A DNA stretch of 39,609 nt from Anaerolineae bacterium (GTDB lineage: Bacteria > Chloroflexota > Anaerolineae > Epilineales > Epilineaceae): contig JAJCYU010000120.1 of assembly GCA_029262755.1 (NCBI GenBank), positions 1 to 39,609 on the forward strand, given 5' to 3'. Positions 1 to 30,803 of the stretch are shown piece after piece. The translations under genes were made by a program, and so were the position numbers. The notes below the pieces were generated by a model that saw only the letters and a program-made list of their open reading frames with translations, had not been told where the DNA came from and did no database searches. Position 1 is the stretch's first letter; each line of letters opens with the position of its first letter.

Positions 1-593
1 AGACGGGCGACCTCGTGATCAACGAGCTGATGGCCGCCAACGAGACCACGCTCGCCGATCCGGAGGGAGAGTTCGACGACTGGGTCGAGCTCCACAACCG
101 CGGCGACGCACCCATCTCGTTGGCGGGCTACTTCCTTACGGACGCGGAGGACGATCCCTTCGCCTACCCGCTGCCCGATCTCACGTTGCCCGCCGGTGGA
201 CACCTCCTCATCTGGGCCGACAACGACCCGGAGCAGGGCCCCGAGCACGCGAACTTCCGCTTGGCTACCTCCGGCGAATCGCTGCTGCTGAACACCGACA
301 CGGAGACCGTCGACCGCATCGACTTCGGCGAGCAGACGACCGACGTGAGCCTGGCCCGCGACCCGGACGGCGGCGCCGCGTGGGTGGCGTGCGCCAGCCC
401 CTCGCCGGGTACGGTGAACGATTGCGCCGGAGGGCCGCCGATCACGCCGCCGGCGACGCCGACCGATGCGCCGTCCACGCCGACGCCCGAAGTCACCGCG
501 CCGCCCGAGTCGACCGCCACGCCAGGCCCGCCGGCGACGTCGACGCCGGACGAGAGCACAATTTGGTTGCCGATCGCGAGGCGGGGAGGCTGA
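1..593 (+). CDS. 5'-truncated secreted protein: lamin tail domain (LTD), Pro/Thr linker and C-terminal IWLPIARR motif; probable paralog of the CotH protein at 28473-30803
   Basis: Frame is open from base 3 (TGDLVINELMAAN...DWVELHNRG...GYFLTD), an LTD signature. It aligns by eye with the C-terminal domain of 28473-30803 (ETGALVINELLADN...DWLELYNRG). The true start lies upstream of the window. Confidence 0.85.
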   Translation, partial: TGDLVINELMAANETTLADPEGEFDDWVELHNRGDAPISLAGYFLTDAEDDPFAYPLPDLTLPAGGHLLIWADNDPEQGPEHANFRLATSGESLLLNTDTETVDRIDFGEQTTDVSLARDPDGGAAWVACASPSPGTVNDCAGGPPITPPATPTDAPSTPTPEVTAPPESTATPGPPATSTPDESTIWLPIARRGG

Positions 594-732
594 CGGTCGC
601 GAGGGCCGTGCAAGGGAAGTCCGTGTAAGGTGCGCCCGGTCGCCCAATCGCCATCGAGCGACTATCGTCGCGTACGCGAGTACCTTGGCCGACGCGAGGC
701 CGGCACGGCGTGCCCCTTGAGAGAGTGAACCC

Positions 733-1218
733 ATGATCGATCGAAGGCTCCGTACTTTTCCAGCCGCGCTCCCATCCCTGGCCCTTGTCCTGACCCTCGG
801 CCTCGGATTCCTGCTGAGCGCCTGCGCATCGACGGCGGTCGCGCCTGGTTCGGACCTGCCGTCCGAGGACGGTGCGGACGGGACGCTGCCGCGGATCATG
901 GCGGGCCTGAGCGAGGACGCCGCCGGCGTCAACGCCGGAATCTGGCTCGAGGACTTCGACTCCATCGCGGCCTCGGCCCAAGCGATCGCCGATCACCCCA
1001 CGGTATCGGACGAAGAGCGCGCTTCCATCCAGGCGGTGCTGGGGGAGGACATGGCCGACTTCGCTCTCGGCGACAAGACCGTACACGAGACGGCGGTGTC
1101 GTTGGTCGAGGCCGCCAAGGCCCAAGACATGGCTGAGGTCCTGGCCCTCAACGCGAAGATGCAGACCGAGTGCGTGGCCTGCCATACGGAGTTCCGGGGC
1201 CGGTTGGCAGATCGATAG
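733..1218 (+). CDS. Lipoprotein c-type cytochrome, four-helix-bundle class II type (cytochrome c'/c556-like)
   Basis: Signal peptide with lipobox LLSAC. Helical body with a single CxxCH (CVACH, 1171-1185) near the C-terminus. Confidence 0.8.
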   Translation: MIDRRLRTFPAALPSLALVLTLGLGFLLSACASTAVAPGSDLPSEDGADGTLPRIMAGLSEDAAGVNAGIWLEDFDSIAASAQAIADHPTVSDEERASIQAVLGEDMADFALGDKTVHETAVSLVEAAKAQDMAEVLALNAKMQTECVACHTEFRGRLADR

Positions 1219-1228
1219 GACGCGCCCG

Positions 1229-1729: not shown

Positions 1730-1907
1730 GGGTGGCTCCATGCGGGGCGAGGGGAGTTGCGCCGCGGGAGTCTATGCGACGGGGATCGATTCGACCACGG
1801 CCGTCGCGGGGAAGACCTTCGCGACCGAGACCGAGCCTTCCGATTCAACGATTGGATCGACGTCCGGGTCGCCCGTAGACGTGCGCGCTGTGCAGGAGCC
1901 ACGCCCA

Positions 1908-2429: not shown

Positions 2430-2433
2430 GAGC

Positions 2434-2829: not shown

Positions 2830-3000
2830 GGAACTACTCCTTGCGGGGTTGCGCGATGGAGAGTCGGCGCAGCGGGGGCGGGGCGGCGGGCGATCTCGAT
2901 CGCCGTCGAAGGCTACGGCCGAGAGGCGGATCGCGTTCACGAGGCAACGCGCGTGTGACGCGTACGCAAGCCTTCTCGATTGTCCACGCGCAGCGGCACC

Positions 3001-3057: not shown

Positions 3058-3178
3058 TGGCGCACGGCCGGAGCACCTTGTTTAATGCTGGGACCCAACC
3101 GAGTCGAAGCGCGACTCGCAGTACCCGATTCGCGTACACTCCGGAAGAACCCACACCCGATAGCAAGGAGCCCGCCCC

Positions 3179-3751
3179 GTGCTGACGATCTGGATCTTGC
3201 TCGCAGTCACCGCCGTGCTCGTCCTGTGGGCGGCCGTGGTCTACAACAAGCTCGTCGGTCTGCGCAACCGCTCCGACAACGCGTGGTCCGATATCGACGT
3301 ACAGCTCAAGCGCCGCCATGACCTGGTCGGCAACCTCGTGGACGCCGTCGAAGGCTACGCCGGGCACGAGCGCGAGACGCTGCAAGCGGTGGTCGAAGCG
3401 CGCCAGGCGGCATCGGGCGCGGCCGCGCAGGGCGACGCGGCGGCGGCCGGCATGGCGGAGGCGCTGCTGGGACGACGCCTCGGTTCGCTGTTCGCGGTCG
3501 TCGAGGACTATCCGGACCTGAAGGCCAACGAGAACTTTCTCGACCTGCAGCGGCAGCTCGGACAGCTCGAGGACGCGTTGCAACAGGCGCGGCGCTACTA
3601 CAACGCTGTCGTGCGCGATCTGAACACGCGCATCCAGTCGCTGCCCGACGTGCTCATCGCACGCGCCGCCGGGTTCACCGAACGCGCCTTCTTCGAGCTC
3701 GATGATCCAGGCGAGGCCGCCGTGCCGGTCGTCGGCGGGGCGCGAGCGTGA
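3179..3751 (+). CDS. lemA: LemA family protein
   Basis: N-terminal TM helix, YNKLVGLRN...NAWSDIDVQLKRRHDL, YPDLKANENFLDLQ and ARRYYNAVVRDLN. AAGGAG RBS. Confidence 0.95.
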   Translation: MLTIWILLAVTAVLVLWAAVVYNKLVGLRNRSDNAWSDIDVQLKRRHDLVGNLVDAVEGYAGHERETLQAVVEARQAASGAAAQGDAAAAGMAEALLGRRLGSLFAVVEDYPDLKANENFLDLQRQLGQLEDALQQARRYYNAVVRDLNTRIQSLPDVLIARAAGFTERAFFELDDPGEAAVPVVGGARA

Positions 3752-5616
3752 CGCGCCAGGAAGCGAAGGGATCCCTGAGAACTTCGCCAGTCGCTGCGAA
3801 CTCTGCGAACTTCGCGAACCCCGCGAGCCCCGTGAACCCTGTACGCAGTGGCGCCATCGCCCTCCTGCTCGCAGCGCTGCTCGCCACGGCGTTCGCCGTT
3901 GCCCCGGGCGGCGCACGGACCGCCCGCGCCGACCTGGCCGGCTTCACGATCACGGACTTCCACACGGAGCTGTTCGTGGAAGAGGATGCCGGGCTGCTGG
4001 TCGAGGAGACCATCCAGGTCAACTTCAACGAGCCGCGGCGCGGCATCTACCGCACGATTCCCGTGCGCTACACGGACCCGCGTGGCTACCGCTACGGCGT
4101 GCAGTTTCGCCTCCTTGACGTCGTGGACGAGGACGGCAGGAGTCATACGACGGACGTGTCGCGCGAGGGTAGCGACGTTCGCATACGCATCGGGGACGCC
4201 GATCGGACGATCACCGGCCCCGTGACCTACGTGATCCGCTACCACGTGGATGGCGCGATCCAGCACCTCGAGACGCACGACGAACTCTATTGGAACGCGG
4301 TCGGCGACTCCTGGGCCACGACGATCGAGCAGGCCTCCGCCACCGTGCACCTGCCCGGATCGCTGTCCGAGAACGATGTCGAGGCCGCTGCGTTTGCCGG
4401 CGTCTTCGGGAGCACAGAAGGCGACGTATCCATCCAGGTTCCGGAGCCGAGCACGGTGATCTACGCCAGCCCACGTGCGCTCGCGCCCTTCGAGGCGATG
4501 ACCGTGGTGGCCGGCTGGCCGCACGGCAACGTCACGTTTCCCTCGCCGGCGATGATCTGGCTGCGCCGGCTGCTCAGCAATTGGGTGCTCGTGCTGCCCT
4601 TCGTGGCGCTCGCATGGATGACGTCGCGCTACCGAAGCCACGGGCGCGACCCCGAGGGCGCCGGCAGCATCACCGTACAGTACGAGGCGCCGGAAGGCAT
4701 TGGGCCGGGCGAGATCGGCACCTTGGTGGACGAAAGCGTCGATATGCGCGATATCACGGCCACCCTGGTCGACCTCGCCGTGAAGGGCCTGTTGCGCATT
4801 GAGATCGAGGAGAAGAAGGGACTGTTCCGTACGTCGGAGGAAACCGCCTTCGTGCGCATCGCCCCGCCCGACGATCCGCAGCTGGCCGCCCTGCTGCCAC
4901 ACGAACTGGCCGTCTTCAACGGAATCTTTGCCCACGGGCAGCGGGTCGACACCAGCGATCTCAACCACGCCTTCTACCGCGAACTGCCCGGCATCAAGAG
5001 CGCGATGTTCACCCATCTGGTGTCCGCGGGCTTCTTCGCGGAGAGTCCGGAGTCCGTGAAGCTCAAGTACGGTGGGCTCGTCGCGCTGTTGGCGCTCGGG
5101 GTGTTTGCTCTCGGCGCTGTGACGGCCTTTCTTACCGGTGGGATCTTCCCCAACGCGCTTGTCGTGCCGGGTGTTGCGGCCGCATTGACCGGATTGTTCG
5201 CCGCCCCCTTCGTGCCCGCCATGCCGCGCCGCACGGCGGAAGGCGTGCGGATGCGCGAGTGGGCGAAGGGCTTCGAGGAGTTCGTCGGGCGCGTGGAGTC
5301 CGACCGGTTGGAGCGCGTCGAGGCCGTCACGGCCTTCGAGACCCTGCTGCCCTATGCGATGGCCTTGGGCGTCGCCGAGACGTGGGCCAAGAAGTTCGAG
5401 GGCATCTACGCGGAGGGCCGCCAGCCGGGCTGGTATGTGGGGCCGCATCACGGCGGCATGTTCTCGACGCGCTCATTCGAGCGCAGCCTCAGTTCCTCGA
5501 TGGGCGCCGTCGCGACGAGCATGGCCGCCGCACCACGCTCGTCGAGCTCGAGCGGGATGGGCGGCGGCGGCTTCTCCGGAGGCGGCTTCGGCGGCGGCGG
5601 CGGCGGGAGTTGGTAG
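3748..5616 (+). CDS. DUF2207 domain membrane protein (usual lemA partner)
   Basis: GIYRTIP, ELYWNAVG, LPYAMALGV and Gly-rich tail GGGFSGGGFGGGGGGSW. GTGA overlap with the lemA stop. Confidence 0.92.
   Translation: MTRQEAKGSLRTSPVAANSANFANPASPVNPVRSGAIALLLAALLATAFAVAPGGARTARADLAGFTITDFHTELFVEEDAGLLVEETIQVNFNEPRRGIYRTIPVRYTDPRGYRYGVQFRLLDVVDEDGRSHTTDVSREGSDVRIRIGDADRTITGPVTYVIRYHVDGAIQHLETHDELYWNAVGDSWATTIEQASATVHLPGSLSENDVEAAAFAGVFGSTEGDVSIQVPEPSTVIYASPRALAPFEAMTVVAGWPHGNVTFPSPAMIWLRRLLSNWVLVLPFVALAWMTSRYRSHGRDPEGAGSITVQYEAPEGIGPGEIGTLVDESVDMRDITATLVDLAVKGLLRIEIEEKKGLFRTSEETAFVRIAPPDDPQLAALLPHELAVFNGIFAHGQRVDTSDLNHAFYRELPGIKSAMFTHLVSAGFFAESPESVKLKYGGLVALLALGVFALGAVTAFLTGGIFPNALVVPGVAAALTGLFAAPFVPAMPRRTAEGVRMREWAKGFEEFVGRVESDRLERVEAVTAFETLLPYAMALGVAETWAKKFEGIYAEGRQPGWYVGPHHGGMFSTRSFERSLSSSMGAVATSMAAAPRSSSSSGMGGGGFSGGGFGGGGGGSW
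3796..3840 (+). repeat. Five degenerate 9-bp tandem repeats in the 5' end of the DUF2207 gene
   Basis: gcgaactct gcgaacttc gcgaacccc gcgagcccc gtgaaccct (ANS ANF ANP ASP VNP). Confidence 0.8.
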
Positions 5617-6611: not shown

Positions 6612-8018
6612 CTATTCCTCGCGGTGGGAAATGGGCAAGTAGATCCGAGCAGCCACCGTGATGGCTGTCGGAGGGGGCGGGGTGCTGCTGGCTGTAGGCG
6701 CCGGCGAAGTGGCGCCATTGGGCGTTGGCGTGGCGGTCCCGGAAGCCGCAGCGGTGCCGCTCGCGTCGGGCGTCGAGGTGGCGCCGCCGCCGCTCGGTGT
6801 CGGGCTGCCGGACGCGGGTTGGGTCATGGTCGCGCTTGCCGTGGCGAGCGGTGTGCCGTTCGCGGGCGTCGATGTAGCGCTTGATACGGGTGCCGGAGAT
6901 GGCGTAGCGGTCGCGGACGCTGCGGGCGACGCGCCGGCGGTCGGTGATGCGGCCGGCGTTGGGGTCGACGTCGGGACCGTCGACGCGGCCGGCGTGGGTG
7001 TCGGCGTCGCGACGGCGGTCGACGACGCGGTCGACGATGACGTTGCGGTCGCGGCCGGCGATGACGTTGCCGTCGCGGTCGGAAGCGATGTCGCCGTAGC
7101 CGTGGCGGTCGACGAGCTCGTGGGGGTAACAGTCGCGCTCGCCGGGCGCGTTGCGGTGGCCGTCGTGGTGGCGGTGCGGGTGGGCGTGCGCGTCGCGGTG
7201 GGGGACAGGGTGGCCGTGCTCGTCGCCGTCGCGGTCGCGGTTGCGGATGGGGTCGACGATGCCGTGGCCGTTGCGGTGGGCGTCGGCGTCGGCGGGTCGT
7301 AGACGATCACGAGGCGGGGGGCTCGCGAACCCGTTGACTCGAAGAGGCGCTCGAACTCGGTGCCGGCCGGGCCACGGACGACGAGCCCGTGATTGGGCAT
7401 GCTGTCGCGGACCCAGTTCTGGGTCAGTACGCGCAGGTCCCACTCGCGCCAGCCGGGTGATGTCCCAACGGAGGTCGTGGCCCACGTGCCCTGCATGGGC
7501 GGCCGGTTGTTCCAGCGGACGGTGCTCTCATCCCAGGTGAGCGTGATGCGCTGCACGACGAGATCAGCGACCGGCTCGCCACTACCCTGCTCGAGCCACA
7601 TCTCCAGCTCGGCGGATACGATGCGCGACTCCTCGGGAATCGCGCTCGTGTCGAAGCGCAGCAACGGATAGCGCTCCCGTCCTGCCGCGTCGATCTCGAC
7701 CGGCCAGGCGGCAGCATTGTTGTAGTTCGTGGCGGGAAACTGCTCGGCCACGTAGGCATCTGCCTCGGGAGTGAGCGTCACCGACTCATCGGCCACAGGC
7801 GCAACCACAGGTGCGAGACCAGGCGCGAGGACTGGGCCGATCGCAGGTGCGGCGAGCGCGACGTGCGGGCGACCGATCGGCGCCGCGACCGGGGCCGCTA
7901 CCGCGACGGAAAGCGCGAAGCCGAGAGCGGCTCGGCCGACTCTCGGCATGTTGGTGGCTGAAAACCCTTCGCGCTGTCTCCGCCTCGACGGGCGAGTCTC
8001 GTTCGTCAAACCATCCAC
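6612..8018 (-). CDS. Secreted DNRLRE-domain protein with long Pro/Thr/Ser/Ala-rich tail and C-terminal IYLPISHR motif
   Basis: Signal-like hydrophobic segment, then LTPEADAYV...PATNY...LLRFD...IVSAELEM...WDESTVRWNNRP...NHGLVV...APRLVIVY (DNRLRE fold pattern), then about 200 aa of low-complexity tail. The start may be ATG 7949. Confidence 0.85.
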   Translation of the reverse strand: MDGLTNETRPSRRRQREGFSATNMPRVGRAALGFALSVAVAAPVAAPIGRPHVALAAPAIGPVLAPGLAPVVAPVADESVTLTPEADAYVAEQFPATNYNNAAAWPVEIDAAGRERYPLLRFDTSAIPEESRIVSAELEMWLEQGSGEPVADLVVQRITLTWDESTVRWNNRPPMQGTWATTSVGTSPGWREWDLRVLTQNWVRDSMPNHGLVVRGPAGTEFERLFESTGSRAPRLVIVYDPPTPTPTATATASSTPSATATATATSTATLSPTATRTPTRTATTTATATRPASATVTPTSSSTATATATSLPTATATSSPAATATSSSTASSTAVATPTPTPAASTVPTSTPTPAASPTAGASPAASATATPSPAPVSSATSTPANGTPLATASATMTQPASGSPTPSGGGATSTPDASGTAAASGTATPTPNGATSPAPTASSTPPPPTAITVAARIYLPISHREE

Positions 8019-8835: not shown

Positions 8836-9114
8836 ATGCGTACGACCATGAGTGTTACCGAGTTAGCGCGCAGCCTGGCGGACGCGATCAATCGCGTGTT
8901 GTACCGTGGCGAGCGATTCACGATCCTCCGTGGCGGCAAACCTGTCGCTGAGATCGTGCCCGTGCCGGTTGGGCGCCGTCTCGGCGATCTTCCGGACTTG
9001 CTTGCTTCGCTGCCCCGGTTGGGCAAAGAAGGCGCGGCCTCCTTCGCTGAGGACATCGATAGCGCTCGACACGAGCTTGCCGAAGTGGAGCAGCCTGATC
9101 CATGGGCCACCTGA
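8836..9114 (+). CDS. vapB: Type II antitoxin, Phd/YefM family
   Basis: MSVTELARSLADAINRV..GERFTILRGGKPVAEIVP. Overlaps the downstream PIN gene. Confidence 0.88.
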   Translation: MRTTMSVTELARSLADAINRVLYRGERFTILRGGKPVAEIVPVPVGRRLGDLPDLLASLPRLGKEGAASFAEDIDSARHELAEVEQPDPWAT

Positions 9115-12900: not shown

Positions 12901-13892
12901 CGTCTCGGTTCGCCTTGAGCGCTGCGGACGGGCATGTGTCGGGGTCAGCGGCGGCCGCCTCTACGTCGGCCCAGACTGCTTCCTTGGCCATCATTACCGG
13001 CGAGATCAGCCGTGATGGCGGTGGGGAGCTGGACCCGTTGATCGTCGGTCCGGCCAAGCCGCTGCCTACGGGCCTGAATCCGCCGCCGGGCGAGCAGGCG
13101 TGCGTCGCGTGGTTGGACGCGTTGGGCGCAGAGCGCGCGAGCTATTGCTTCAACCCGCACTTCGAGAGCGCGGAGACCGGTCCGACCGATCGTGTGCCGC
13201 TGCGCCTCGTGCTGCCGCACCCGCCTGACACAGCGGCCGTGCAGCTGCGCTGGCAGGGTCAGCTTGTCGACGAACTGCGGCCGGGTGGAACTTCGCCCGA
13301 CGTGACGCTGCTCTCTCCCAACGGAGGCGAGGTCGTCGCCGGAATGCAGCGCGTGACGTGGGAAGCGAGCGACCCCGACGGCGACCCGCTGCGCTACCAC
13401 GTGCTCGCCAGCATCGACGACGGCGCATCATGGCGCACCGTGGCCACGGACCTCGTGGAGACGAGCACGGTCTGGGATACGACTCGCGCCGGCGGCGGAG
13501 GTGCCGTGCGCCTGCGCGTTGTCGCCACCGATGGCATCCACACCGCGCACGACGACGTCGACGCCGCCTTTGTGATGCCGCGCATGGCGCCTTCGGCGCG
13601 GATCATCACGCCGCGTATGGGATCGGTCTTCGCTCGCAGCCAGGCGGTGCTGTTGCTGGGTAGCGCGCAGGATCCGGAAGAAGGCGCGCTCGGCGGCGCC
13701 AGCCTCCGGTGGACGTCGGATCGCGACGGACCGTTGGGTACCGGCCGACAGGTCGTGAGCCCTGACCTCAGCCGCGGGCCGCACGTCATTTCGTTGCAGG
13801 CAATCGACGCGGACGGCCTCAGCGACGAGGCGACGGTGGAGCTGTTGATCGGCGAGCGGATCTGGATGCCGTGGGCGGGAGGGGGATCGTGA
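9924..13892 (+). CDS. Large secreted multidomain zinc metallopeptidase: signal peptide, DNRLRE, Pro/Thr linker, PPC-like, Ig-like, metzincin domain, Ig-like domains, C-terminal IWMPW motif
   Basis: DTYVSEGFPTTNY...ALLRFDL (DNRLRE); DGFEPNDD...DRDVYRV (PPC-like); HELGHNFGLRH (12684-12716) with a downstream DFM Met-turn; LLSPNGGE and DPEEG..L.WTSDRDGPLGTG Ig-type modules. Confidence 0.85.
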   Translation: MSPLCDWDRRPLRFVVLVLVPVLVIPMLLGGLDASVQAQPSLFESEARPVDASAEFAAAAQVVIDLQPEKDTYVSEGFPTTNYCQDATLRTGGLFFESQTYKDRALLRFDLTGIPGGAIIQSATLELTLEASSGGGTSTIGVYRIFGAWDPCATTWDAQPSHDGLFAQTGVGTGVQAYTWDVRQLVQLWTDGTGNFGMLLRTVDETETLRRRFQSVDVGQSVPRLRVTYALPTATATRTTRPTATFTATPTRPPTPTSTPRPLPSFTASPVATSTATPTSTATATPTPTATPTITPLPTPTSTPTRTPTPTATSTPSATPTPAHTATPVFTCERDGFEPNDDAASAGLIPADSWLDASLCPAWDRDVYRVAAKPGERIRVELHGLDAAASVALFDPAGDLVANSDNPDRLPEDLRAVAKMEGEYRVHVAAPATFGQAVKGQSGGDANETPYRLRVSLGDPLLEAVPAVSQAKGAIYFSGRGLGPPSGACEVRAYWDDARPENVLGTAAIDAAGSFSMQVAVPDGAQIGSHRIVAEQVCSDLEASGFARSTASRFLDAQPDRTQQGMLPLPDTGVEIDPELLEWMGLLPCERSGPPRFPELDLTVADIEVTQAIQCLDSEEGDTDCPDISLPLVRDRPTLVRVYLAVDGIPEGETVRWVRTTLFVRRPGEAEPGVTVRSVHAWIDVEREWEGFVTDPLAGGRTTRETMSATANFRLPAEYLSGDVILTAHVNPRTAPLCGTPEEDANRDNNAGDPLSISFEERSDLRIGYVRVDYRPPTDCGFTGTPGLPGATIHDAADWLYKIFPLGRPAEYVQGPDLSFNRCLVTWDSNPEERDDVRDADRALNQALNRRWSLHFLAWLFSLGGTSLPPDQIVGWLPADAADAVRGGKALLGFADPRWYRGGQGVSAWVTEPGGGRTLAHELGHNFGLRHSSPGDERWPYDTADIQEDGVDVLEMTVIEADRAKDFMFGRREDADWISPTSWRRLFDADLRPSRFALSAADGHVSGSAAAASTSAQTASLAIITGEISRDGGGELDPLIVGPAKPLPTGLNPPPGEQACVAWLDALGAERASYCFNPHFESAETGPTDRVPLRLVLPHPPDTAAVQLRWQGQLVDELRPGGTSPDVTLLSPNGGEVVAGMQRVTWEASDPDGDPLRYHVLASIDDGASWRTVATDLVETSTVWDTTRAGGGGAVRLRVVATDGIHTAHDDVDAAFVMPRMAPSARIITPRMGSVFARSQAVLLLGSAQDPEEGALGGASLRWTSDRDGPLGTGRQVVSPDLSRGPHVISLQAIDADGLSDEATVELLIGERIWMPWAGGGS

Positions 13893-14831: not shown

Positions 14832-16292
14832 ATGATCCGATCGCGCGTTCTGTCTTTCATGCTGATGTTCGCTGTGCTTGCTGCGTTCACGGGCGCCTGC
14901 GCGGCCGGGGACACGGACGCACCGGCAGCCGTCGATTCCGCCGTGACCGAAGCCTCGGCGGCCGAAGGTGCCTTGGCGCAACCGGCCGTCCCCGTCCAAC
15001 CCGATGCCGACGCTGCCATCCCAACGTCCTCGTCGGAGGCGGTCGTCGAAGAAGCAGTGCCGGCGGAGGACGACCCCGGGTCGGCACCGCCCGACGCAGC
15101 GGTGCCCGAGCCGGTCGACTCCGACTCCGATGCGGAAGCCCCCGCGCCCGCCGCGGAGATCGACACCGCTTCCGCGGACGCCGATCTGGAGCCCGCGGAG
15201 GCCACGCTCGATTCCGCCTCCGCCGAGGTCGAAGCGCCCCCTGTGCCCGAGGACGGCGGGCCGGCGGCGGCAAGCGTCGACCCGGCATCCGTGCCGGTTG
15301 AAGGCGATCCGTTGCAACCGGGTGCTCCGGACGAGGCGGTCAGCTTTGCATTGCCGCCCGGCTATGAGGTGGGCAATCCCGCCACGCATCCCCTGGCCAT
15401 CGAACGGCTGCGCGGCTTGAGCTATCCCGGCAGCGACCTGGTGGTGGTGCAGGAGCTGCCCGCGGGCAGCAACTACTCCCGTTCGGTCGCCACCTACCAG
15501 TCCGACGGGCTCACGATTCGCGGCCTGCTGACCATCCCGAATGGCGAGCGGCCGCCCACCGGCTGGCCCGTGGTCATCTTCAACCATGGCTACATTCCCC
15601 CCGCGCAGTACCGCACGACGGAACGCTACGTCGCCTACCAGGACGCCTTTGCGCGCGCAGGCTACATCACCTACAAGTCGGATTACCGCGGCCACGGGAG
15701 CTCGGAAGGCGAGTCGGGCAGCTCGCGCGGCACGCCCGACTACACCGTCGACGTCATGAACGCGCTGGCCTCCGTAGAGCGCCATCCAGACTCCGACCCG
15801 GAGCGAATCGGCATGTGGGGCCATTCCATGGGCGGTCTTGTCACCCTCAAGAGCATGGTGATCAGCGACCGGATCAAGGCCGGGGTCATCTGGGCGGGCG
15901 TGGTGGCCTCCTATCCGGATCTGTACAACCGGCTTGGGCGTAGCGACCAACCCTCCAGCGGATCGCAGGACCGGTCCGGCCGTCGTGGATGGCGCACCGA
16001 GCTTGTCGAGCTCTTCGGCCCGCCGGAGGAAAACGCCGCGGGTTGGGATGCCGTCTCACCCAACGCACACCTCGCCGCGATCTCGGGGCCGCTGCAGTTG
16101 CACCATGGCACCGCGGACAGCTCCGTGCCGGTGATCTATTCCACACGGCTTCAGGAGCAGATGGAGGCGGCGGGCCGGCCTTCCGAGACCTTCGTCTACG
16201 AGGGCGACGACCACAACCTGGCCGGAAACTTGTCGACTGCGCTGGCACGGTCCGTAGAGTTCTTCGACCGGCATGTGAAGGGTGGGGGATGA
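14832..16292 (+). CDS. Lipoprotein alpha/beta-hydrolase (S9/prolyl oligopeptidase-like) with acidic Ala/Pro/Asp/Glu N-terminal linker
   Basis: AAGGAG RBS; lipobox FTGAC; nucleophile GHSMGG, acid GTADSSV, His GDDHNL; SDYRGHGSSEG. Confidence 0.88.
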   Translation: MIRSRVLSFMLMFAVLAAFTGACAAGDTDAPAAVDSAVTEASAAEGALAQPAVPVQPDADAAIPTSSSEAVVEEAVPAEDDPGSAPPDAAVPEPVDSDSDAEAPAPAAEIDTASADADLEPAEATLDSASAEVEAPPVPEDGGPAAASVDPASVPVEGDPLQPGAPDEAVSFALPPGYEVGNPATHPLAIERLRGLSYPGSDLVVVQELPAGSNYSRSVATYQSDGLTIRGLLTIPNGERPPTGWPVVIFNHGYIPPAQYRTTERYVAYQDAFARAGYITYKSDYRGHGSSEGESGSSRGTPDYTVDVMNALASVERHPDSDPERIGMWGHSMGGLVTLKSMVISDRIKAGVIWAGVVASYPDLYNRLGRSDQPSSGSQDRSGRRGWRTELVELFGPPEENAAGWDAVSPNAHLAAISGPLQLHHGTADSSVPVIYSTRLQEQMEAAGRPSETFVYEGDDHNLAGNLSTALARSVEFFDRHVKGGG

Positions 16293-16891: not shown

Positions 16892-19800
16892 CTACGGACA
16901 GCCGGGGATGCTCGCCTGGATCTCGGCGTAGATACCGGCCAGGGCGCCCGTGTCCGGGGCGAAGAAGTAGCGGCCCGCGTCGCCCGCGACGTCGGCCAGC
17001 AGCGCCGCGTCGGCGCCCTCGCCCAGCCCGACCGCGTAGACCGTGATGCCGGCCGCGCGCGCCGCGGCGCCCGCGGTGTAGGCGGTGTCCGGCTCGATGG
17101 TCTGCTGCCCGTCGGAGAGCAGAACGATGACGTGGCCCGCGCCGGGGCGGCCCTGCTCGGCGAGGACGCGCGTCGCCGTGGTCAGGCCACGGTCAATGCG
17201 AGTGCCGTTGCGCGCCGCGATGCGCGCGACGGCGGCCTCAAGCGCGCCGCGATCGTCCGTCATGCGTTGCACGACCGTTGCCTCCGTCGCGAAGTCGACG
17301 ACGGCCACGCGGTCGTAGTTCGTACGCAGGTCCGTGTTGTCGATGAAGCCGCGCATGCTGGCCTTGGCCGCGGCCAGCTTCTCGCCGCTGCCCTCGGCCA
17401 TCGAGGAGGAGACGTCGACGACGAGCGTAATGTCGAAGCGACGCTTGACGGGGAAGCAGGCGGCGTTGCCGGTCCAGGGAAGGTAGATCGCGACCGGCTC
17501 CGGTGTGGGCGTCGGCGGCAAGGGGGTCTGGGTGGCCGGCACCGGGGTGGCGGTCGGCGTTTCGGCCGGCGGGATGACCTCAAGTTGTGGGATCGGGAAG
17601 GTGAGCGTTTGGGCCTGGCCCCAACCGTCGGTGAACGCGGCCACCAGGGAATCGGCGATCGGCATCGTGCCGCCGACCTGGGGCTCGATCGCGACACCGT
17701 AGGCGCCGCCGTTGAAGCCCATCTCCGGTTGGGTCCATGCGAGATTGGGCGCGCTCCATACACCATCGCCCGTGCCGACGATCGTTGCCTCGTCCGGTGT
17801 GATGTCGGCCGGGACCTGGTAGGTCAGCGTGATGTCCGTGGCCAGGTTGGCCGGCGGCTCGTAGAGCACCATGCGGCGGTGCGCCTCGGCGCTGCCGAAG
17901 AGGGCGTCCTCGTCGCTGGAGGCGAGGTCGAAGGCGCCGAAGCTGTTGATCACGATGATCGTGACGCCGTTCTGGCGCAGCAGGAGCGCGGTGTCCTCCG
18001 CGGGCGGGATGCCCTGGCATTGGCCGGGAAAGAACTCGTTCTCCGGGTTGCAGTAGTCGGCGTTGAGGATGACGAGCACCTTGCGGCGGGTGTCGTCGTC
18101 GAAGAGCGTGAAGGCTTCCTCCATGCCGTCCTTGAGGCGCTGTTTGACGTTCTCGTTGGGCGGGTTGAAGCGGGTGATGTTCTCGGTGGCCTCGAAGTAG
18201 GCGTCGCGGTCGTTGGTCAGCGGCAGGTCGACGGTCGTGCCCGTGTAGAAGGACACGATGCCCGCCCGGTGCTTGCTGAAGTTCACGCGGCTGACGAGCT
18301 GCTTCATCTCCGTGATCAAGGTGCGGGCCGGATCGACGCCCTGCTGCAGGCGGCCGAAGTACGGCACGGTAACCACGATATCGGCCGGCTCTTCGAAGAT
18401 GCCGCACTTGCCGAGCATCGAGATCGAGATGGCCGAGGTGGCGCCGAGGTCGAGCGTGGTCGGCGACGCGGTCGTCTCACCCACGAACTCGCAGGCGCCG
18501 TCGCCGGGGACCGGCAACACCAGGCGGTCGGAGGAGGGCGCGAAGACCGTGATCAGGCTGGACTGTGCGTCCGCGACATACACGCGGCCGCTGCCGTCGA
18601 CGGTGAGGTCGGAGAGCGTCGTGGGATCCGAGAAGTCGAGCGGGCGGCCGTCCAGACGGGCGGTGATCGTACCGTCGTCGGCGTAGCGTTCGATGGAGCC
18701 GGGCTCGCGCAAGACGTACACGGCGCCGTCGGGCGACGGCGGGCCGCCTGCAACGCGGCGTGCGTCGAAGGCGACGGGCACATCGACGATCGGCGTGCCG
18801 TCGGGGGCCATGATGCGCACCAGGTCCTCGAAGTCATCGAGGGCGAAGATGCGGCCGTCCGTGGCCACCTTGAGGTCCGTGTACGGGTTGGCGCTGCCGT
18901 CGTCCGGTAGCTCGATGGGCGGCTGGAGCTCGCGGCCCTCTTCGTTGTAGCGGACGATCTGCACGTTCTGCGTACGCTGCTGCTCCACAACGTCCACGCG
19001 GACGACGAGCAGCTCCTTCGTGACGTGGTTCCAGGCGAGCGCGGGCACCTCGATCTCCTCGAACGAAGAGACGAGGGGGTCGGTCCAGATCGGCTCGATC
19101 ACCGTCTCCGTGCCCTGCTGGGAGCGCCGCTCGACGTTCTGGAACCGGCCGATCCCGCCCTCCACGACGAAGTTGCCGCCGGAGCGCTGGCCGTTGAGGT
19201 AGTAGCCGTAGATCTCACCGAGCACGTCGCCGCCCGACGCTTGGATCACTTGGAAGAACTCGAAGTCACCGCCGAAGCTGCCCGACGAGCTGGCGCGCTC
19301 CGACGTGGCCACCTGTTGGCCCTCCAGATCGAAGTAGCGCAGCTGCGCCGAGTTGTCCGACACGAAGAGGTGGTTGGTGCTGGGCATCGTGATGCGGTTG
19401 GGCGCGAAGAGCAGCGGGTTGTCGGAGTTCTCGTTGGACGCCGCTTCCCAGATCGTTTCGACGGACTTCAACGATTCGTCGCCGTACTTCACGATGACCG
19501 GGGTGGTGTCCAGCTCCGTGCGCTTCTCGCCGCAGCGGCCCGTGTTGGGGTCGTTCTGGGCGAGCGCGTAGTAGTCCTGCGTCATGGCGTTGAGGCGGGG
19601 CAGGGTGACGGTGTCCTTGCAGATCGAGCGCGAGTTCGCGCTGGCCGCGATGGCGAAGTCGTAGTCGCGGCCGTCCAAGATGCAGGCCTGCGTCGCTTCG
19701 CCGATGAAGACCTTGTCGCCGCCCATGGCGTTCATGCGCGTCGCGCGGCAGCTGTTATCGCCTTGGGTGTACCTGGGGTTGAGCAGGTCGTAGGACCGGC

Positions 19801-21026: not shown

Positions 21027-22388
21027 ATGAAGAACGCTCAGGCGGAACACGGTCGAAGGGAGCGAGGGCGTCGAGTCCTCGTGTACGCGCTGGTTCTGCT
21101 GGTAGGTGGGGCAGCCGCCCGTGGGGTCGATGCATCCCGCGCATCGCGCTTGGCGCAGGTCGCTACGGCGACCCCCGTGCCCGCCATGTCTGATCTCGAG
21201 TTGGGCGAGGTGGTGATCACGTCTCGGCCGGGCGTCGTGTGTGGGCGGACCGCGAGGGGGTTGTTGTTTCGTTTCGCGAACGTTGGCCACGGGCCGGCGT
21301 CAGGCTTTCTGGTGCGGGCCGGCGATCGCTGGCTCGCGGGTGGTCGTGTGGCGGCCGGAGCCAATGGCTGGGTCTGGTTCGATGGCCTGACATCGACCGA
21401 CGTATTGCGGGTGGTTGTGGACGATGCGGATCAGGTGCTCGAGCTCGACGAAGGCAACAACGAGCGGACGGCGCGGCCGGATGAGGGTCCGATCCCCAAC
21501 TGGCCTACGTGCACACCGACGGCGGTGGCCACGGGTCCGCGGCCGACCGCGACCGCGCGACCGGATCTGCTCGCGGAGATTCTCTCCGTCAGCGTCGCGC
21601 CCGATTGGCGCTGCGAGGACACGCCTGTGTTGGGGCTGCGCGCGCAGTTTCGATTCGAAGACGGTGTGGATACGCCGGCCTTTGTGGTGACGACCAACGG
21701 CACGCCGCGCGCGCACGATGGACGCGCATTCCGCTCCCGCGGCACCACCTGGGTTCCGGGCTTTCGTGCGGAGGGGGGCAACGAGTTGGTCGTCGACGCG
21801 GCGGAGCAGGTCGACGAGGCGGATGAGACGAACAACCATCTGGCGGGGGGCACGCCGCTGCCCCTTCCGACGTTGCCGCCCTGCCCTCCCGGACCCAATC
21901 CCGAGGATCTGCCCGATCTGGTGATCGGAGACACACGATGGGTGCACAAGGGCTTCAACGGCATCTGCATCCCGGCCGACGAGGGTATCGAGCTGCGGCT
22001 GGCGGTGTGGAATCGCGGCGGGTCGACGGCCGGGCCATTCCTGGTCCGCATGCGTACCTCCGGCCGCACATGGCGCGTCGAAGGCCTTGCGCCGGGCACC
22101 GTGGTACGGCTCGAGCCGCAATCGGGCTGGCGTGCAGGCGATTTTCCGCTCGAGATCGAGGTCGATCCGGACAACGAAGTGCCAGAGTCCGACGAAACGA
22201 ACAACCGGCGGTCGTTGCCGACCCCGCCACCCTTCACGCCGCCGCCCTTCTGCACGGCGACACCGACGGGAGGCGGACCGACGGTCACCTCGCGCGTGCC
22301 GACGCCGACGGGTACCGTTCCATCGACGACGGCTACCCCAACGGCCGATCCGGTGTACGTGCCGCTTTCGATTCGGGAGGCGCGGTAG
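21027..22388 (+). CDS. Secreted protein with three CARDB (Ig-like) repeats and C-terminal VYVPLSIR motif
   Basis: Three repeats starting (P/S)DL and ending VD..(D/E)QV.E.DE.NN / VDPDNEVPESDETNN. Signal-like N-terminus and Pro/Thr linkers. Confidence 0.85.
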   Translation: MKNAQAEHGRRERGRRVLVYALVLLVGGAAARGVDASRASRLAQVATATPVPAMSDLELGEVVITSRPGVVCGRTARGLLFRFANVGHGPASGFLVRAGDRWLAGGRVAAGANGWVWFDGLTSTDVLRVVVDDADQVLELDEGNNERTARPDEGPIPNWPTCTPTAVATGPRPTATARPDLLAEILSVSVAPDWRCEDTPVLGLRAQFRFEDGVDTPAFVVTTNGTPRAHDGRAFRSRGTTWVPGFRAEGGNELVVDAAEQVDEADETNNHLAGGTPLPLPTLPPCPPGPNPEDLPDLVIGDTRWVHKGFNGICIPADEGIELRLAVWNRGGSTAGPFLVRMRTSGRTWRVEGLAPGTVVRLEPQSGWRAGDFPLEIEVDPDNEVPESDETNNRRSLPTPPPFTPPPFCTATPTGGGPTVTSRVPTPTGTVPSTTATPTADPVYVPLSIREAR

Positions 22389-24724: not shown

Positions 24725-25165
24725 TTAGGCGCCGCGGTCAGCGAGCGGATGACGCCAGCGAAGACCCGGAAAACGGCTGAAGTCGCGGTCCGTGGTGATC
24801 CATTCGCAACCGGACTCGATCGCCAGGGCGGCAAAGTAGGCATCTGGAATCAGGTTCCCCTTCGCGCCCGCAGACGTGCAAAGGCGCTCGAAGATTCCCC
24901 AATGTCGATCGCCGGGGCTCACCTTGACGGATGTCGGTGACATCCGCAAGGAGTGGCAAAAGGTCATTGCAGTTCCCAACGGGCTGGGGGGATCGAATAT
25001 CCGAGAATGGGTGACGATTCGAACAAATCCGCTGAGCACATGCTCCGAGAACGCCCAGGAGGCATTGCCGTTGACTATCTCTTCCACCCAAGTGCGGTAG
25101 GCTGCATGGTCGGGCGCGTCCTCACGGTGCGCGTAGACCAAGACGTTGACGTCCATCAGGATCAC
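24725..25165 (-). CDS. vapC: Type II toxin, VapC PIN-domain ribonuclease (mycobacterial-type MILxDVNVLVYA family)
   Basis: MILMDVNVLVYAHRED, GFVRIVTH.RIF..P, GNLIPDAYFAALAIE and TTDRDFSRFPGLRW. Confidence 0.93.
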   Translation of the reverse strand: MILMDVNVLVYAHREDAPDHAAYRTWVEEIVNGNASWAFSEHVLSGFVRIVTHSRIFDPPSPLGTAMTFCHSLRMSPTSVKVSPGDRHWGIFERLCTSAGAKGNLIPDAYFAALAIESGCEWITTDRDFSRFPGLRWRHPLADRGA

Positions 25166-25416
25166 GGCTTCGTATCGTCCGTATTCATGAGGTCAAGGAG
25201 CGCTGCGCCGTCGTCCAGATCGACTCCCGGAAAGAGGCCGTTGCCGCCCACGGTGGCTAGCCGTACAGCGTCGCGCGGAAGCTTCACCTGCTTCTGCCGG
25301 GCAAGGAGATTGCGAAGAGCTTCCTCGATCAGCGAAGTCATGGTGCGGTCGGTCTCAGCCGCAAGGACTCTGAGCTCTTTGAGCAAGCCGTCATCGAGTC
25401 GAATCGTCGTACGCAT
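25162..25416 (-). CDS. vapB: Type II antitoxin, ribbon-helix-helix (CopG/VapB) family
   Basis: MRTTIRLDDGLL..L...AA...RTMTSLIEEALR...GLFPGVDLDD. GTGA overlap with vapC. Confidence 0.9.
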   Translation of the reverse strand: MRTTIRLDDGLLKELRVLAAETDRTMTSLIEEALRNLLARQKQVKLPRDAVRLATVGGNGLFPGVDLDDGAALLDLMNTDDTKP

Positions 25417-25501: not shown

Positions 25502-26587
25502 CTACCGCTCCGCCACGAAGCGGTCCACCTCGGCGCGCATCTCGGGTTCGCGCATCTTCGCCTCCACGGCTTCGGGGCGCAGGCTTAGGGCCGGGATCTC
25601 CGCGGTCACGTCGAGGATGAAGTCCGCGCGTTGCCAGAGCAGGTCGACGAGATCGCGCACGTCCGTTTCGGCGCGTAGGGCGGCGTAGTCGTCGGGGTGG
25701 TTCTCGCGGGCGTGGCGGAGGAAGAATTCCACGTAGAGCATCATCGTGACGAGGCCGTCGCGGTAGCTGGTGCTGCCGCGCAGTTGGTCGTGGATGCCGT
25801 AGCCGGTGAACATGGAATGCGTGTAGGCGTTGAACTCGTCCAGCAACGTGAAGAAGTTCTGGTCGCCGGACTGGCCGGTCAGGTACGTGTCTTTGTATTG
25901 GTTATCCAGATCGCCCGTGATGTATGGGGCGATCTCGGAGCGAGGGAAGGTGTCGATGTTGGGCACAAGGCGCGTGTCGTCTGCGCGGATCGCGTAGTAG
26001 TACTCGCGGAAGAAGGTGGGGAGCGCGCCTTCCTGGAAGCCGAGTTGGTGGTCCATCTCGTGGACGGCGACCTGGAGTGCGCGCAGCAGGCCGTCGAAGG
26101 AATCGCGTTGGCCGCCGGTCCAGATGGCCGCGTTGGTCTTGCTGTCGTCCAAGGCCGTGACGATGAAGTGACCGGTGGCGTAGCGGCGTTCGAGGACGGC
26201 CAGCATCGTCTCGTACCAGCGGTCGGCGTCGTAGCCGTCGCGCAGGTCGTCGATGGACGCGAGGTCCGTCAGCGCTTCGCTGTAGGGCGGCTTGCCCGGC
26301 GTGGCGGCGGCCGTGGATGTGGCGGTCGGAAGAGGCGGCGGCGGGGGCTCGCGGTCCGGCGTGGCGGTGGGGCCCGTGGGTGGCCGCGACGTCGGCGCGG
26401 GCGCGAACGCTGAGTTGCCGGCGTTCCGTGCCACGAGCGGCACGAACAGCCAGGTGCGCTCTGGGTCCGGATCCGGTTGCATCGGCGGCGCGGCACCCGC
26501 GGGCGGTGGGGCGAGTGAAAGCGCGATCGTCAGGCCGACGGCAGCGAGTGCGAATACGCCTTGTTTGAGGGATGAGTCCGACGTCAT
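25502..26587 (-). CDS. Secreted hypothetical protein with N-terminal LFVPLVAR motif, Pro/Thr linker and an HExxH-containing helical domain (putative zincin)
   Basis: AGGAG RBS; signal peptide; HEMDH (26048-26062) and downstream LDEFNAY. Confidence 0.7.
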   Translation of the reverse strand: MTSDSSLKQGVFALAAVGLTIALSLAPPPAGAAPPMQPDPDPERTWLFVPLVARNAGNSAFAPAPTSRPPTGPTATPDREPPPPPLPTATSTAAATPGKPPYSEALTDLASIDDLRDGYDADRWYETMLAVLERRYATGHFIVTALDDSKTNAAIWTGGQRDSFDGLLRALQVAVHEMDHQLGFQEGALPTFFREYYYAIRADDTRLVPNIDTFPRSEIAPYITGDLDNQYKDTYLTGQSGDQNFFTLLDEFNAYTHSMFTGYGIHDQLRGSTSYRDGLVTMMLYVEFFLRHARENHPDDYAALRAETDVRDLVDLLWQRADFILDVTAEIPALSLRPEAVEAKMREPEMRAEVDRFVAER

Positions 26588-28314: not shown

Positions 28315-28472
28315 CGGGCTGGGGCTCGATGAATGGGGACCGACGTGCCAGCCAAGAGTACGGCGCCGAGATGCCGAATCGATAACAGTTCCTTGATACG
28401 CTTCCGGCGGCGGTGACGAGGATTGCAACCGCCCCATCCCCCACGACTCGACGAGCCTGTAGGAGCGCCACG

Positions 28473-30803
28473 ATGCGTCGCTACTCGATTCCCACCGTCC
28501 TGCTGCTATTCGGCGCGACGGCCGTGTTCGCCATTGCGCCGGCTTCCGTCGAGCAATCGGTCGCCGCTGCGCCGGTGGATTCGGTGCCGGCCGGCGTCGC
28601 TCCCATCGCCGCGGCGCCCGACGGCCTGCTTCAAGATCCACCGGCCGACGAAGAGCCGGAGCTCTACGACGACCAGGTCGTCCACGACGTGCACTTCACG
28701 TTCGAGTCGAGCGATTGGCAATCCCAGCTGCACTGTCCGGCGCGCGGAGGACCCGGGGGGCCAGGCGGACCGGCTCGCCCAACGCCGGAGCCGCCGACCG
28801 ACCTGCCGGCGCGGTTGGAGATCGACGGGCACGTCATTGAGCGGGTGGGCGTTCGTTGTAAGGGCAACTCTTCGACGGGGATCAACGGCCCCAAGAAGCC
28901 GCTCAACCTCACGATCGACTCGTTCGACGATGGGCAGGATCTGTGGGGCTTCGACGTGATCAACTTCAACAACAACTACAACGACCCATCCCAGATGCGC
29001 GAGGCGATCATCCTGTCCATGTTGGGCACGTACATGCCCGTGCCACGCCATTCGTGGGCGCAGGTGCACGTCAACGGCCAGGTTGTGGGGCTGTACCTGC
29101 TCGTCGAGCAACTCGATCGGACGTACTCGGAGGACACCTTCGGTGATGCGGGGATCATGATTCGCGGCGACTCGCCCGACATCATTGCGTTCGAGTCCTC
29201 GACGCTCAATTGGCTGGGCGAGGACGTCGACGCGTACCGTGCCGGGTACGAGGTGAAGGGGCGCAACGCCGACTCGGACGAGGGCTACGAGCTGGTGCGC
29301 GAGCTGACCCGGGCGCTCGATGCACCCGAGAGCGCGGGCGGGCTCGCGGAGGAAGACCTCAACGAGGGGCTGTGGGAGATCCTCGATGTGGATAGCGCGC
29401 TTTGGTACATCGCTGGACATAACATCACGGCCGATTACGACAGCTACTTCGTGGGCAAGAACTTCTTCCTGCACTACGGAGAGCGCGATCCACGCCACCA
29501 CATGATCAGCTGGGATATGGGTCTGGGCTTTGGGCTGTTCCCCTTTATCGTTCCCGGCGGAGGTTTCGGTCCCGGCGGCCCCGGCGGACCGGGAGGGGGC
29601 ACGCCCGTCGAGCGCGTGGATCCCTTTGCGCAGGCGGAGTCCATGCAGCGGCCGCTGATCCGTCGGCTGCTGAGCGTACCGGAGTTCCGCGCCGACTACG
29701 TGGCCCACTACCGCGAGCTGCGCGCGAGCCTGTTCACTCAGGAATGGGTCGGCGCGTTGGGCGCGCGCTACCAAGAGCTCACCCGCGCGGCCGTGACGGC
29801 CGAGGAGACCGCGAACGGCTCGATCGCCGGCGCGTTCACCCTCGCGCAATGGGAGCAAAACCTCAACGAGCCGGTGGAGATCGCCGGCCGACGCGGCTCG
29901 ACAACGGTGCCTGGAATCGTGTCGCTCGTGCGCGAGCGTGGCGCGTTTCTCGACGGGCTGGCGGTCCTGCAGCCGCCGGACATCGACTTGGCGGAGCACG
30001 CGGTCGTGCCCGAGGCGCCGACCTCACGCGACGCGGTGACGTTGGTCGCGCGCTTCGACGGCGGCGACGCGGTAACGTCGGCGCAGCTGCGCTATCGGGT
30101 GCGGGGCGGCGTCGAGCAGCGCGTGCCGATGACGCGCGACGAGGACGGCTCGTGGACCGCGGTCGTGCCCGCGCAGGCGACGGGTCGGACGGTGACCTAC
30201 GCGTTCCGAGCCGAGATCGAGGATGGCCGCGTGACGTTCTTCCCGGCCGCCAACTGGACGCAACCCTTCGCGTACGAGATTGCCGGCGTCACGCTACCGC
30301 GCGAGGAGACGGGGGCGCTCGTCATCAACGAGCTGCTTGCGGACAACGAGGCCGGGCTGCTCGACGAGGCGGATGAAGCGGAAGACTGGCTCGAGTTGTA
30401 CAACCGCGGCGATGAGCCGATCGACCTGGCCGGCCACTTCATTTCCGACGACGCGGAGGATCCGTGGTCGTATGGACTACCGGCTATGAGCCTGTTGCCG
30501 GGCGAGCACCTACTGATCTGGTGCGACGGAGATCTGGATCAGGGACCGCTGCACACCCCGTTTCGCTTGAGTCGCGGTGGGGAGAGCGTGGTGTTGGCCA
30601 CCGCGGACGCCATCGTGGATCAGGTGGACTTCGGTGAGCAGGTTGCGGACGTTAGTTTTGGGCGTGTCACCGATGGCGCCGACACCTGGGACCAATGCGC
30701 CACGCCCTCGCCGGGGGCGGCCAATGCGTGCACGGGCTATGAAGCGCCGCCCGAGCCGCCGGCGACCTGGAGCCTGTACTTACCCCGAGTTCTGGACGAA
30801 TAA
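28473..30803 (+). CDS. Secreted CotH-family kinase with Ig-like domain, lamin tail domain and C-terminal LYLPRV motif
   Basis: AGGAG RBS; signal peptide; VGVRCKGNSS, KKPLNL, DPSQMRE, GLYLLVEQ, DYDSY..KNFFLH and ISWDMGLGFG CotH motifs; LTD LVINELLADN...DWLELYN. Confidence 0.88.
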   Translation: MRRYSIPTVLLLFGATAVFAIAPASVEQSVAAAPVDSVPAGVAPIAAAPDGLLQDPPADEEPELYDDQVVHDVHFTFESSDWQSQLHCPARGGPGGPGGPARPTPEPPTDLPARLEIDGHVIERVGVRCKGNSSTGINGPKKPLNLTIDSFDDGQDLWGFDVINFNNNYNDPSQMREAIILSMLGTYMPVPRHSWAQVHVNGQVVGLYLLVEQLDRTYSEDTFGDAGIMIRGDSPDIIAFESSTLNWLGEDVDAYRAGYEVKGRNADSDEGYELVRELTRALDAPESAGGLAEEDLNEGLWEILDVDSALWYIAGHNITADYDSYFVGKNFFLHYGERDPRHHMISWDMGLGFGLFPFIVPGGGFGPGGPGGPGGGTPVERVDPFAQAESMQRPLIRRLLSVPEFRADYVAHYRELRASLFTQEWVGALGARYQELTRAAVTAEETANGSIAGAFTLAQWEQNLNEPVEIAGRRGSTTVPGIVSLVRERGAFLDGLAVLQPPDIDLAEHAVVPEAPTSRDAVTLVARFDGGDAVTSAQLRYRVRGGVEQRVPMTRDEDGSWTAVVPAQATGRTVTYAFRAEIEDGRVTFFPAANWTQPFAYEIAGVTLPREETGALVINELLADNEAGLLDEADEAEDWLELYNRGDEPIDLAGHFISDDAEDPWSYGLPAMSLLPGEHLLIWCDGDLDQGPLHTPFRLSRGGESVVLATADAIVDQVDFGEQVADVSFGRVTDGADTWDQCATPSPGAANACTGYEAPPEPPATWSLYLPRVLDE

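Follow-up and report, generated by a model that had tools for sequence, protein, structure and literature searches.

Bacteria send many unrelated enzymes to the cell surface by means of portable modules, such as cohesin-dockerin pairs, SLH domains and the LPXTG, PEP-CTERM and MYXO-CTERM signals, and in chaperone-usher and type V pili, pilin subunits are polymerised when the incomplete beta-sandwich of one polypeptide is completed by a strand of another. Here, we analyse a short peptide tag that recurs seven times, on exported proteins with different domains, in a 39,609-nucleotide stretch of DNA from an Anaerolineae bacterium of the Chloroflexota (GenBank assembly GCA_029262755.1, contig JAJCYU010000120.1; "the window" denotes this whole stretch). 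An earlier reading of the letters alone (the original prediction) defined the pattern, [ILV]-[YWF]-[LVM]-P-xxxx, and took it for the mark of a candidate uncharacterised surface-display system. It appears probable to us that the tag docks exported clients, without the help of an attaching enzyme, as a donor beta-strand on a tetrad of ASRAH beta-sandwich repeats that lacks its own first strand. As in the pili, the slot of the tetrad is predicted to be completed by a foreign strand; unlike in the pili, one and the same donor strand would serve hundreds of unrelated clients, and the acceptor itself would carry no donor. The tag also differs from the portable modules, being about nine residues long, with neither a folded domain nor a transmembrane helix, acceptable at any position in the protein, and with no enzyme that fits its distribution as well as the tetrad does. 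Whereas LPXTG and PEP-CTERM signals consist of a motif followed by a transmembrane helix and a basic tail, only 3-21 residues, mostly 4-9, remain after the Pro in 144 C-terminal tags of this genome, in agreement with the original prediction, and the genome (84% complete) yields no SLH domain match.

The nearest catalogued relatives of the tag are the NCBIfam models NF050076 (sort_motif_YLP) and NF053834 (ultrashort_CTERM), both entitled 'YLP-box putative sorting motif-containing protein', which likewise describe a short phi-aromatic-L-P-phi-phi-x-R motif in exported Chloroflexota proteins. Canonical tails of the genome match both models (2 of 14 matches over the cut-off for NF050076 and 11 of 11 for NF053834; control genomes match too, with 2 and 10/14 over the cut-off), and here, as in the YLP-box definition, a short motif is found on many unrelated exported proteins, mainly near the C-terminus. 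None of the seven window peptides matches any NCBIfam model at E up to 10, the carrier proteins show no YLP-box match in the NCBIfam scans, and the window copies are absent from the genome matches to the two models; the window lineage often has W or R behind the Pro, unlike the catalogued motif. Because none of them scores against either model, the window tags are, judged by their sequences, divergent variants of the YLP-box and not formal members. The claim of an uncharacterised system stands, therefore, only in part: the motif had already been listed as a putative sorting motif, although the entries as shown name neither a mechanism nor a partner. In the literature searched, which covered Chloroflexota sorting signals, the YLP-box, ASRAH and the envelope and included few subscription papers, we found no paper on the tag and no proposal of donor-strand docking as the mechanism of the YLP-box.

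Within the window, all seven peptides translate in frame at the positions assigned to them (Table 1), the domain matches of the seven open reading frames agree with the disparate labels originally given to the carriers, and the lowest matrix score among the seven is that of the copy at 26426 (8.9 bits). In the 25 residues upstream of six of the seven tags, the combined fraction of Pro and Thr is at least 0.36, the exception being the tag at 13860 (0.04), and a pattern search detects no [ILV][YWF][LVM]P in either of the two window lipoproteins that had been singled out as controls. The observations on which the original prediction was built are thus sound, with the qualification that the association with a Pro/Thr linker does not extend to the whole genome, where 64 of 144 C-terminal tags follow a Pro/Thr-rich stretch and 46 follow a stretch with a Pro+Thr fraction below 0.2. 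The linker is optional and not part of the signal.

The genome-wide tallies are based on our own gene caller, which yielded 3516 genes (3167 called and stop-ended, 2722 complete); they are undercounts, given that the caller missed the window gene at 6612-8018 and that the tag at 26426 falls under the 12-bit threshold. The core [ILVAFMT][YFW][LIVM]P lies within 12 residues of the C-terminus in 169 of the 3167 stop-ended genes, compared with 121 of 43,607 non-gene frames, far more than chance would give, and the distance from the Pro to the end peaks sharply at 4-9 residues (144 cases), as against 0-5 cases per position at 13-40. A weight matrix trained on the C-terminal cases of this genome produced 313 matches (186 C-terminal and 127 elsewhere) versus 39 in a shuffled proteome; with the threshold set to 12 bits, the 3516 genes contain 282 tag sites, and about 280 proteins of the genome, most of them exported and not lipoproteins, carry the tag. 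The LPW variant is found repeatedly within the family and the order. As had been anticipated, the tag is enriched in proteins with a signal peptide (150 of 567 complete genes) over lipoproteins (2 of 95) and 'cytoplasmic' proteins (48 of 1440), all three classes being assigned by our own heuristic and not by SignalP; among the 'cytoplasmic' carriers, many are visibly exported proteins with a misplaced start, alongside a few false positives such as the terminal strands of histidine kinases. One such kinase is encoded in the window itself (33634-36030), where the last strand of the ATPase domain resembles the tag core, a recurrent false positive in motif scans.

The usage of the tag obeys a simple rule: among the 2722 complete proteins, 228 contain one tag and none contains two. 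Of the signal-peptide proteins, 51 bear their tag at the N-terminus or internally, and none of these has another at the C-terminus, compared with 99 of the 516 others (p 5.7e-5), so that the three positions appear to be alternatives for one function. A VWA domain follows 33 of 61 internal tags, as it does at 17465; the resulting cassette of tag, Cys and VWA domain is mobile and ends many unrelated exported proteins (window 16892-17488 and 32 further sites in the genome). Among 61 proteins that show an RR-like motif close to the start, 10 carry the tag, five of which were judged by eye to have true Tat signals, and the presence of the tag on such Tat-like carriers suggests that it acts after export, on folded clients. 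The other option left open by the original prediction, namely, that the tag routes proteins to an export machine, is less favoured because the tag can be N-terminal, internal or C-terminal and is carried by Tat-like substrates.

The candidate partner, hereafter the scaffold, is a compact exported protein with four ASRAH repeats. Both it and the described members of the superfamily (ASRT 2II7, TM1070 1NC7, DUF5719) have the ASRAH fold, here in the form of a tetrad, and the available sections of De Souza, Iyer and Aravind 2009 (PMC2739507) include in this superfamily secreted tetrads of Chloroflexi for which sugar binding was predicted. Those tetrads are described there as always fused to an amidase, and the same sections are silent on tetrads that stand alone, on the lack of a first strand and on any docking tag. 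No Pfam or NCBIfam model gives the scaffold a name, the sole match being DUF5719 on one paralogue. The genome encodes 42 proteins with ASRAH-type repeats; the source records of the scaffold homologues bear the labels Ardenticatenales, Anaerolineae or Chloroflexi. One close homologue, on a 1.7-kb contig (L052), belongs to a bin labelled Burkholderiaceae and another, P0192, is labelled Competibacteraceae, which probably reflects mis-binning. The main scaffold gene, split across contig ends, appears to be duplicated and breaks the assembly, and two near-identical copies are also present in the relatives G267 and G270. For modelling, we used the homologue P0005, which shares 94% and 91% identity with the two scaffold fragments of the genome. 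The conserved Asn that closes strand 2, a feature of the ASRAH superfamily, is invariant in all four repeats of the scaffold alignment A1 (N52, N159, N277 and N398).

What sets the compact members apart is a conserved vacancy. Repeats 2-4 open with a strand of the form T-[TK]-[VL]-[AYF]-[LAV]-P-L-[VIA]-R, whereas repeat 1 opens at strand 2. With a strand-1 matrix trained on repeats 2-4, which misses divergent cis strands, a score of at least 6 bits is reached before repeats 2-4 in 85-86 of 86 homologues and 27 of 28 loci from across the phylum, compared with 1 of 86 and 2 of 28, respectively, before repeat 1. In both exceptional loci, L024 and L028, the exact place of strand 1 is taken by a Pro/Thr linker with a canonical tag, and, by eye, a tag-like strand is present at the N-terminus of about a dozen homologues and at the C-terminus of about as many. 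Two other counts were set aside: a first count of strand 1 by regular expression was inflated by signal-peptide prolines and gave way to the matrix test, and a re-test by regular expression on 119 further homologues was discarded because 75 were skipped and the repeats were mis-indexed (repeat 3: 1 of 44).

Structure predictions bear out the vacancy. The AlphaFold2 model of P0005 (mean predicted local distance difference test score, pLDDT, 88.4; predicted template modelling score 0.85) contains strand 1 at 136-146, 254-266 and 372-382 and none in repeat 1, which consists of seven strands. The scaffold fold is an eight-stranded beta-sandwich that superposes on TM1070 (1NC7; Z 13.4, root-mean-square deviation 2.9, 110 aligned residues, model 371-488 to chain 3-115) and on ASRT (2II7; Z 9.5, deviation 4.0, 104 aligned), as expected of the ASRAH superfamily; most chains retrieved by Foldseek with the entire model were non-specific and Ig-like, 1NC7 coming at rank 16, and in a sequence search of the PDB, two CBM2-type domains ranked higher than 1NC7. 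According to the sections of PMC2739507 at hand, strands 1, 3 and 4 of each half of the sandwich form one sheet, with strand 2 opposite, from which it would follow that strand 6 sits in the same sheet as strand 1. In a paralogue (C212:1150-2634), a C-terminal tag-like tail is modelled by AlphaFold2 as an 11-residue strand (491-501, pLDDT about 91) whose lead-in follows the pattern seen at strand 1 of the other repeats, and this tail may well occupy the missing strand-1 site.

Co-folding, which the original prediction had named as a check with candidate S-layer proteins, placed the tag in the same slot of the scaffold. ESMFold2 was given the mature P0005 scaffold and the peptide encoded at 501-590 of the window, which carries the tag at 561, and assigned the complex a score of 0.79 (0.80, 0.74 and 0.79 in the individual runs), compared with 0.02 for the best of three controls; 116 of 157 solved complexes and 2 of 215 mismatched pairs reach the mark used, counts that hold only roughly with the alignments employed here. 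The runs share at least 87% of the contacts, and the pLDDT of the partner, linker included, is 51-53. In the predicted interface, residues 18-30 of the peptide lie against scaffold residues 43-48, 98-115, 156-160 and 228-230; peptide residues 21-26 pair with 102-107, that is, strand 6 of repeat 1, and touch 43-48, 113-119, 156-160 and 228-230; this is the place left vacant by strand 1.

The phylogenetic distribution of the two partners points in the same direction. We searched 251 Chloroflexota genomes with a strict tag-plus-stop DNA pattern, a looser pattern and a scaffold profile; the strict pattern matched in 66 genomes and the profile in 62. The scaffold is present in 30 of the 31 genomes with at least three strict tags versus 32 of the 220 others, the kind of co-occurring gene that the original prediction had hoped profiling would reveal, and, with the looser pattern, in 24 of 24 genomes with a tag excess of at least 12 over the control. 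Among near relatives, 19 of 21 genomes contain the scaffold, and G145 and G123 have neither tag nor scaffold within families that mostly have both.

Several findings weigh against this interpretation. The predicted complex attests to fit and not to affinity; the predictor may slot in any strand resembling those of repeats 2-4 by pseudo-symmetry, and the three controls included no scrambled tag. The tag and strand 1 of ASRAH are, at the level of sequence, similar and not identical: the tag matrix gives strand 1 a median of 1.9 bits (-16.4 for all Pro windows), and only 12% of the strands reach 8 bits. A scored tag is also present on eight of the 42 tetrad-domain proteins, including some that already possess strand 1. 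G236 (99% complete, 260 contigs) has five strict tags, and the three examined all lie in long open reading frames with extracellular-type domains, yet two profiles failed to find the scaffold there, although scaffold genes often break assemblies, as they do in the genome studied here; G171 has two strict tags, and no scaffold was found in it. Conversely, with the looser pattern, the tag excess is not clear (<5) in 26 of the 62 genomes that have the scaffold, a figure to be read in the knowledge that the patterns are insensitive and that some scaffold matches are fused complete tetrads. Kin among the 251 genomes are not independent, so that the p-values of the co-occurrence overstate its significance. 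Finally, according to the sections of PMC7332563 consulted, the external layers of C. aggregans and R. castenholzii are amorphous, and cryo-electron tomography revealed no crystalline S-layer in either.

Each alternative explanation accounts for some of these data. The tetrad might bind the tag only transiently, as a carrier or chaperone that escorts folded clients over the outer layers and then releases them; the structural and co-occurrence evidence would fit this scenario equally well, as the retention of clients at the surface is itself an inferred element of the display model, but we consider it unlikely, given that strand complementation is usually very stable, as in chaperone-usher pili, that long Pro/Thr stalks suit display, and that some giant repeat proteins end in a complete tetrad in place of the tag, which reads as an anchor. 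These proteins (up to 11,555 amino acids, 5' open; G000:C209:3619-38286, C44:14307-28733, C108:3559-18087 and C384:1862-11038) carry no tag, and their C-terminal complete ASRAH tetrad looks like an alternative anchor. It is quite improbable that there is no protein receptor at all and that the tag, as a hydrophobic strand with a basic end, inserts in a lipid-like outer layer or self-associates. The tags of G236, where no scaffold was detected, would be compatible with this notion, and so would the outer-membrane-like layer of unspecified nature that the consulted sections of PMC7332563 mention for some Chloroflexota; however, many tags of the genome are only weakly hydrophobic past the Pro, and the conserved missing strand, the cis-complemented paralogues and the co-occurrence would all be left unexplained.

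The possibility that the tag descends from ASRAH strand 1 and is now read by a sortase- or exosortase-like enzyme that cuts the tag and attaches the client to the envelope strikes us as very improbable. The genome does encode two sortases over the cut-off and one exosortase-family gene (with a downstream partner gene, G000:C141:15144-16917), and a sortase is present in 30 of 31 tag-rich genomes, but so it is in 142 of 220 tag-poor ones and in 16 of 16 genomes of the nearly tag-free family f2, whereas it was not found in G069, a single contig with seven strict tags and the scaffold; an exosortase is present in just 3 of the 31 tag-rich genomes. Both enzymes fit the tag distribution worse than the scaffold does. 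Moreover, no transmembrane helix follows the tag, and cutting at N-terminal tags would free the payload instead of anchoring it. We give hardly any credence to another receptor, with the likeness to ASRAH strand 1 being a relic or a coincidence: three candidate partners were profiled in all, and the match between the tag and strand-1 consensus sequences is imperfect, but the slot is vacant throughout the phylum, and the predicted complex stands up to its controls.

Donor-strand docking is the explanation supported jointly by the conserved vacancy, the cis intermediates, the two structure predictions, the co-occurrence and the one-tag-per-protein rule. Under this model, a client would be exported by Sec or Tat; its tag is predicted to enter the vacant strand-1 slot of repeat 1, antiparallel to strand 6 and packed on repeat 2; and each client would clip, one-to-one and non-covalently, to one scaffold subunit. 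The scaffold could be an abundant, probably glycan-binding component of an outer envelope layer, such that neither a sortase nor a lipid anchor would be needed to display enzymes and adhesins, often on Pro/Thr stalks. A beta-strand tag that works at any position and tethers non-lipidated exported proteins to a scaffold, as put forward in the original prediction, is thereby supported, and a specific candidate for the scaffold, the strand-less ASRAH tetrad, can be named. More tentatively, as a possibility to be taken seriously, the system may constitute an enzyme-free, genome-wide display code of the filamentous-type Chloroflexota, in which a 9-residue strand split from an ASRAH domain plugs hundreds of proteins into the tetrad, the tetrad being the building block of the outer envelope layer of the phylum; this would be a new class of protein sorting signal and a natural plug-and-display pair.

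The codon-bias ranks of the scaffold, 223 and 227 of 3295, come from a noisy measure and are a weak hint of abundance only, and the metatranscriptome contigs of relatives (<95% alike) cover the scaffold gene that was used to find them and cannot rank expression. The neighbours of the scaffold gene in 31 loci include a flippase-like LPG_synthase_TM gene (11 loci), an S-adenosylmethionine methyltransferase (10), a CarboxypepD_reg lipoprotein-like gene (10) and GT2/GT4 glycosyltransferases, a setting that would be expected of a surface glycoprotein locus. The small lipoprotein-like gene, with its carboxypeptidase-regulatory-like domain and repeated YP motifs, directly adjoins the scaffold gene in its 10 loci (L014, L015, L017, L025, L027, L030, L036, L039, L040 and L041; for example, L025:773-1594, minus strand), and its product is a candidate membrane anchor of the scaffold. 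The composition of the outer layers of Chloroflexota is stated to be not known in the consulted parts of PMC13319060 and PMC7332563. The former describes inner and outer layers, of unstated composition, together with a lattice-like protein layer in L. aerophila; in Table_2 of its supplement, the second most abundant protein by copy in sheared filaments is a 49-kDa 'CARDB domain-containing protein' (A0A540VDF2), which may or may not be the tetrad and is not counted as evidence here, and our search of this supplement found no YLP or DUF5719 label. In Viridilinea, a hexagonal S-layer is confined to the apices (PMC7332563, same sections), and the part of bioRxiv 10.1101/2024.05.28.596244 seen here mentions a beta-propeller S-layer in Dehalococcoides, a fold unlike the tetrad. 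Because an S-layer is not general in cryo-electron tomography of Chloroflexota, as far as the consulted sections of PMC7332563 go, we speak of a scaffold and not of an S-layer protein.

Table 1. Coordinates of the tags, control genes and scaffold gene fragments (window positions unless a contig is given; G000 denotes the genome, of which the window is contig C120)
Feature	Position	Strand	Context
Tag IWLPIARR	561..584	+	C-terminal; lamin-tail-domain (LTD) protein, 5'-truncated, open reading frame 3-593; peptide used in the complex prediction
Tag IYLPISHR	6621..6644	-	C-terminal, behind a long Thr/Pro/Ala linker; DNRLRE/CBM96 protein, open reading frame 6612-8018
Tag IWMPWAGG, LPW-type variant	13860..13883	+	C-terminal, without linker; DNRLRE/CBM96 protein with weak metzincin matches, 9924-13892
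Tag IYLPWTGN	17465..17488	-	Internal, Pro/Thr linker on one side and C-terminal VWA domain on the other; NHL-propeller/VWA protein, 16892-20572
First VWA strand of the NHL-propeller/VWA protein	17402-17437	-	C-terminal VWA domain beyond the internal tag
Tag VYVPLSIR	22353..22376	+	C-terminal; CARDB-repeat protein, 21027-22388
Tag LFVPLVAR	26426..26449	-	N-terminal, directly behind the signal peptide; HExxH protein with a weak metalloprotease match, 25502-26587
Tag LYLPRVLD	30774..30797	+	C-terminal; CotH kinase and LTD protein, 28473-30803
Control: cytochrome c' lipoprotein	733..1218	+	Without tag
Control: alpha/beta-hydrolase lipoprotein	14832..16292	+	Without tag
Scaffold fragment	G000:C190:1-654	-	Compact exported protein, four ASRAH beta-sandwich repeats; outside the window
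Scaffold fragment	G000:C212:3-848	+	Main compact gene, split across contig ends; outside the window
Scaffold, second 3' end	G000:C59:3-269		Outside the window

Apart from the tag carriers, the window contains two gene pairs (8836-9506 and 24725-25416) that we take to be antitoxins with PIN-domain toxins of the VapBC type; at 3179-5616, what is presumably a LemA-like gene, upstream of a gene for a DUF2207 membrane protein, the latter identified by a domain match; and, at 32214-33547, a presumed ECF (extracytoplasmic function)-type sigma factor together with a probable membrane anti-sigma factor gene that has no Pfam match.

Taken together, these observations bear on a motif that is carried by roughly a quarter of the signal-peptide proteins of this genome and yet is listed in the catalogues with no mechanism attached. 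Since the model specifies a single receptor, a single slot and a single register, both the mechanism of the tag and the composition of the outer layer become testable. If it is correct, split-domain strand complementation would join the known mechanisms of surface sorting, and the tag and its tetrad would offer a very small affinity-tag pair.

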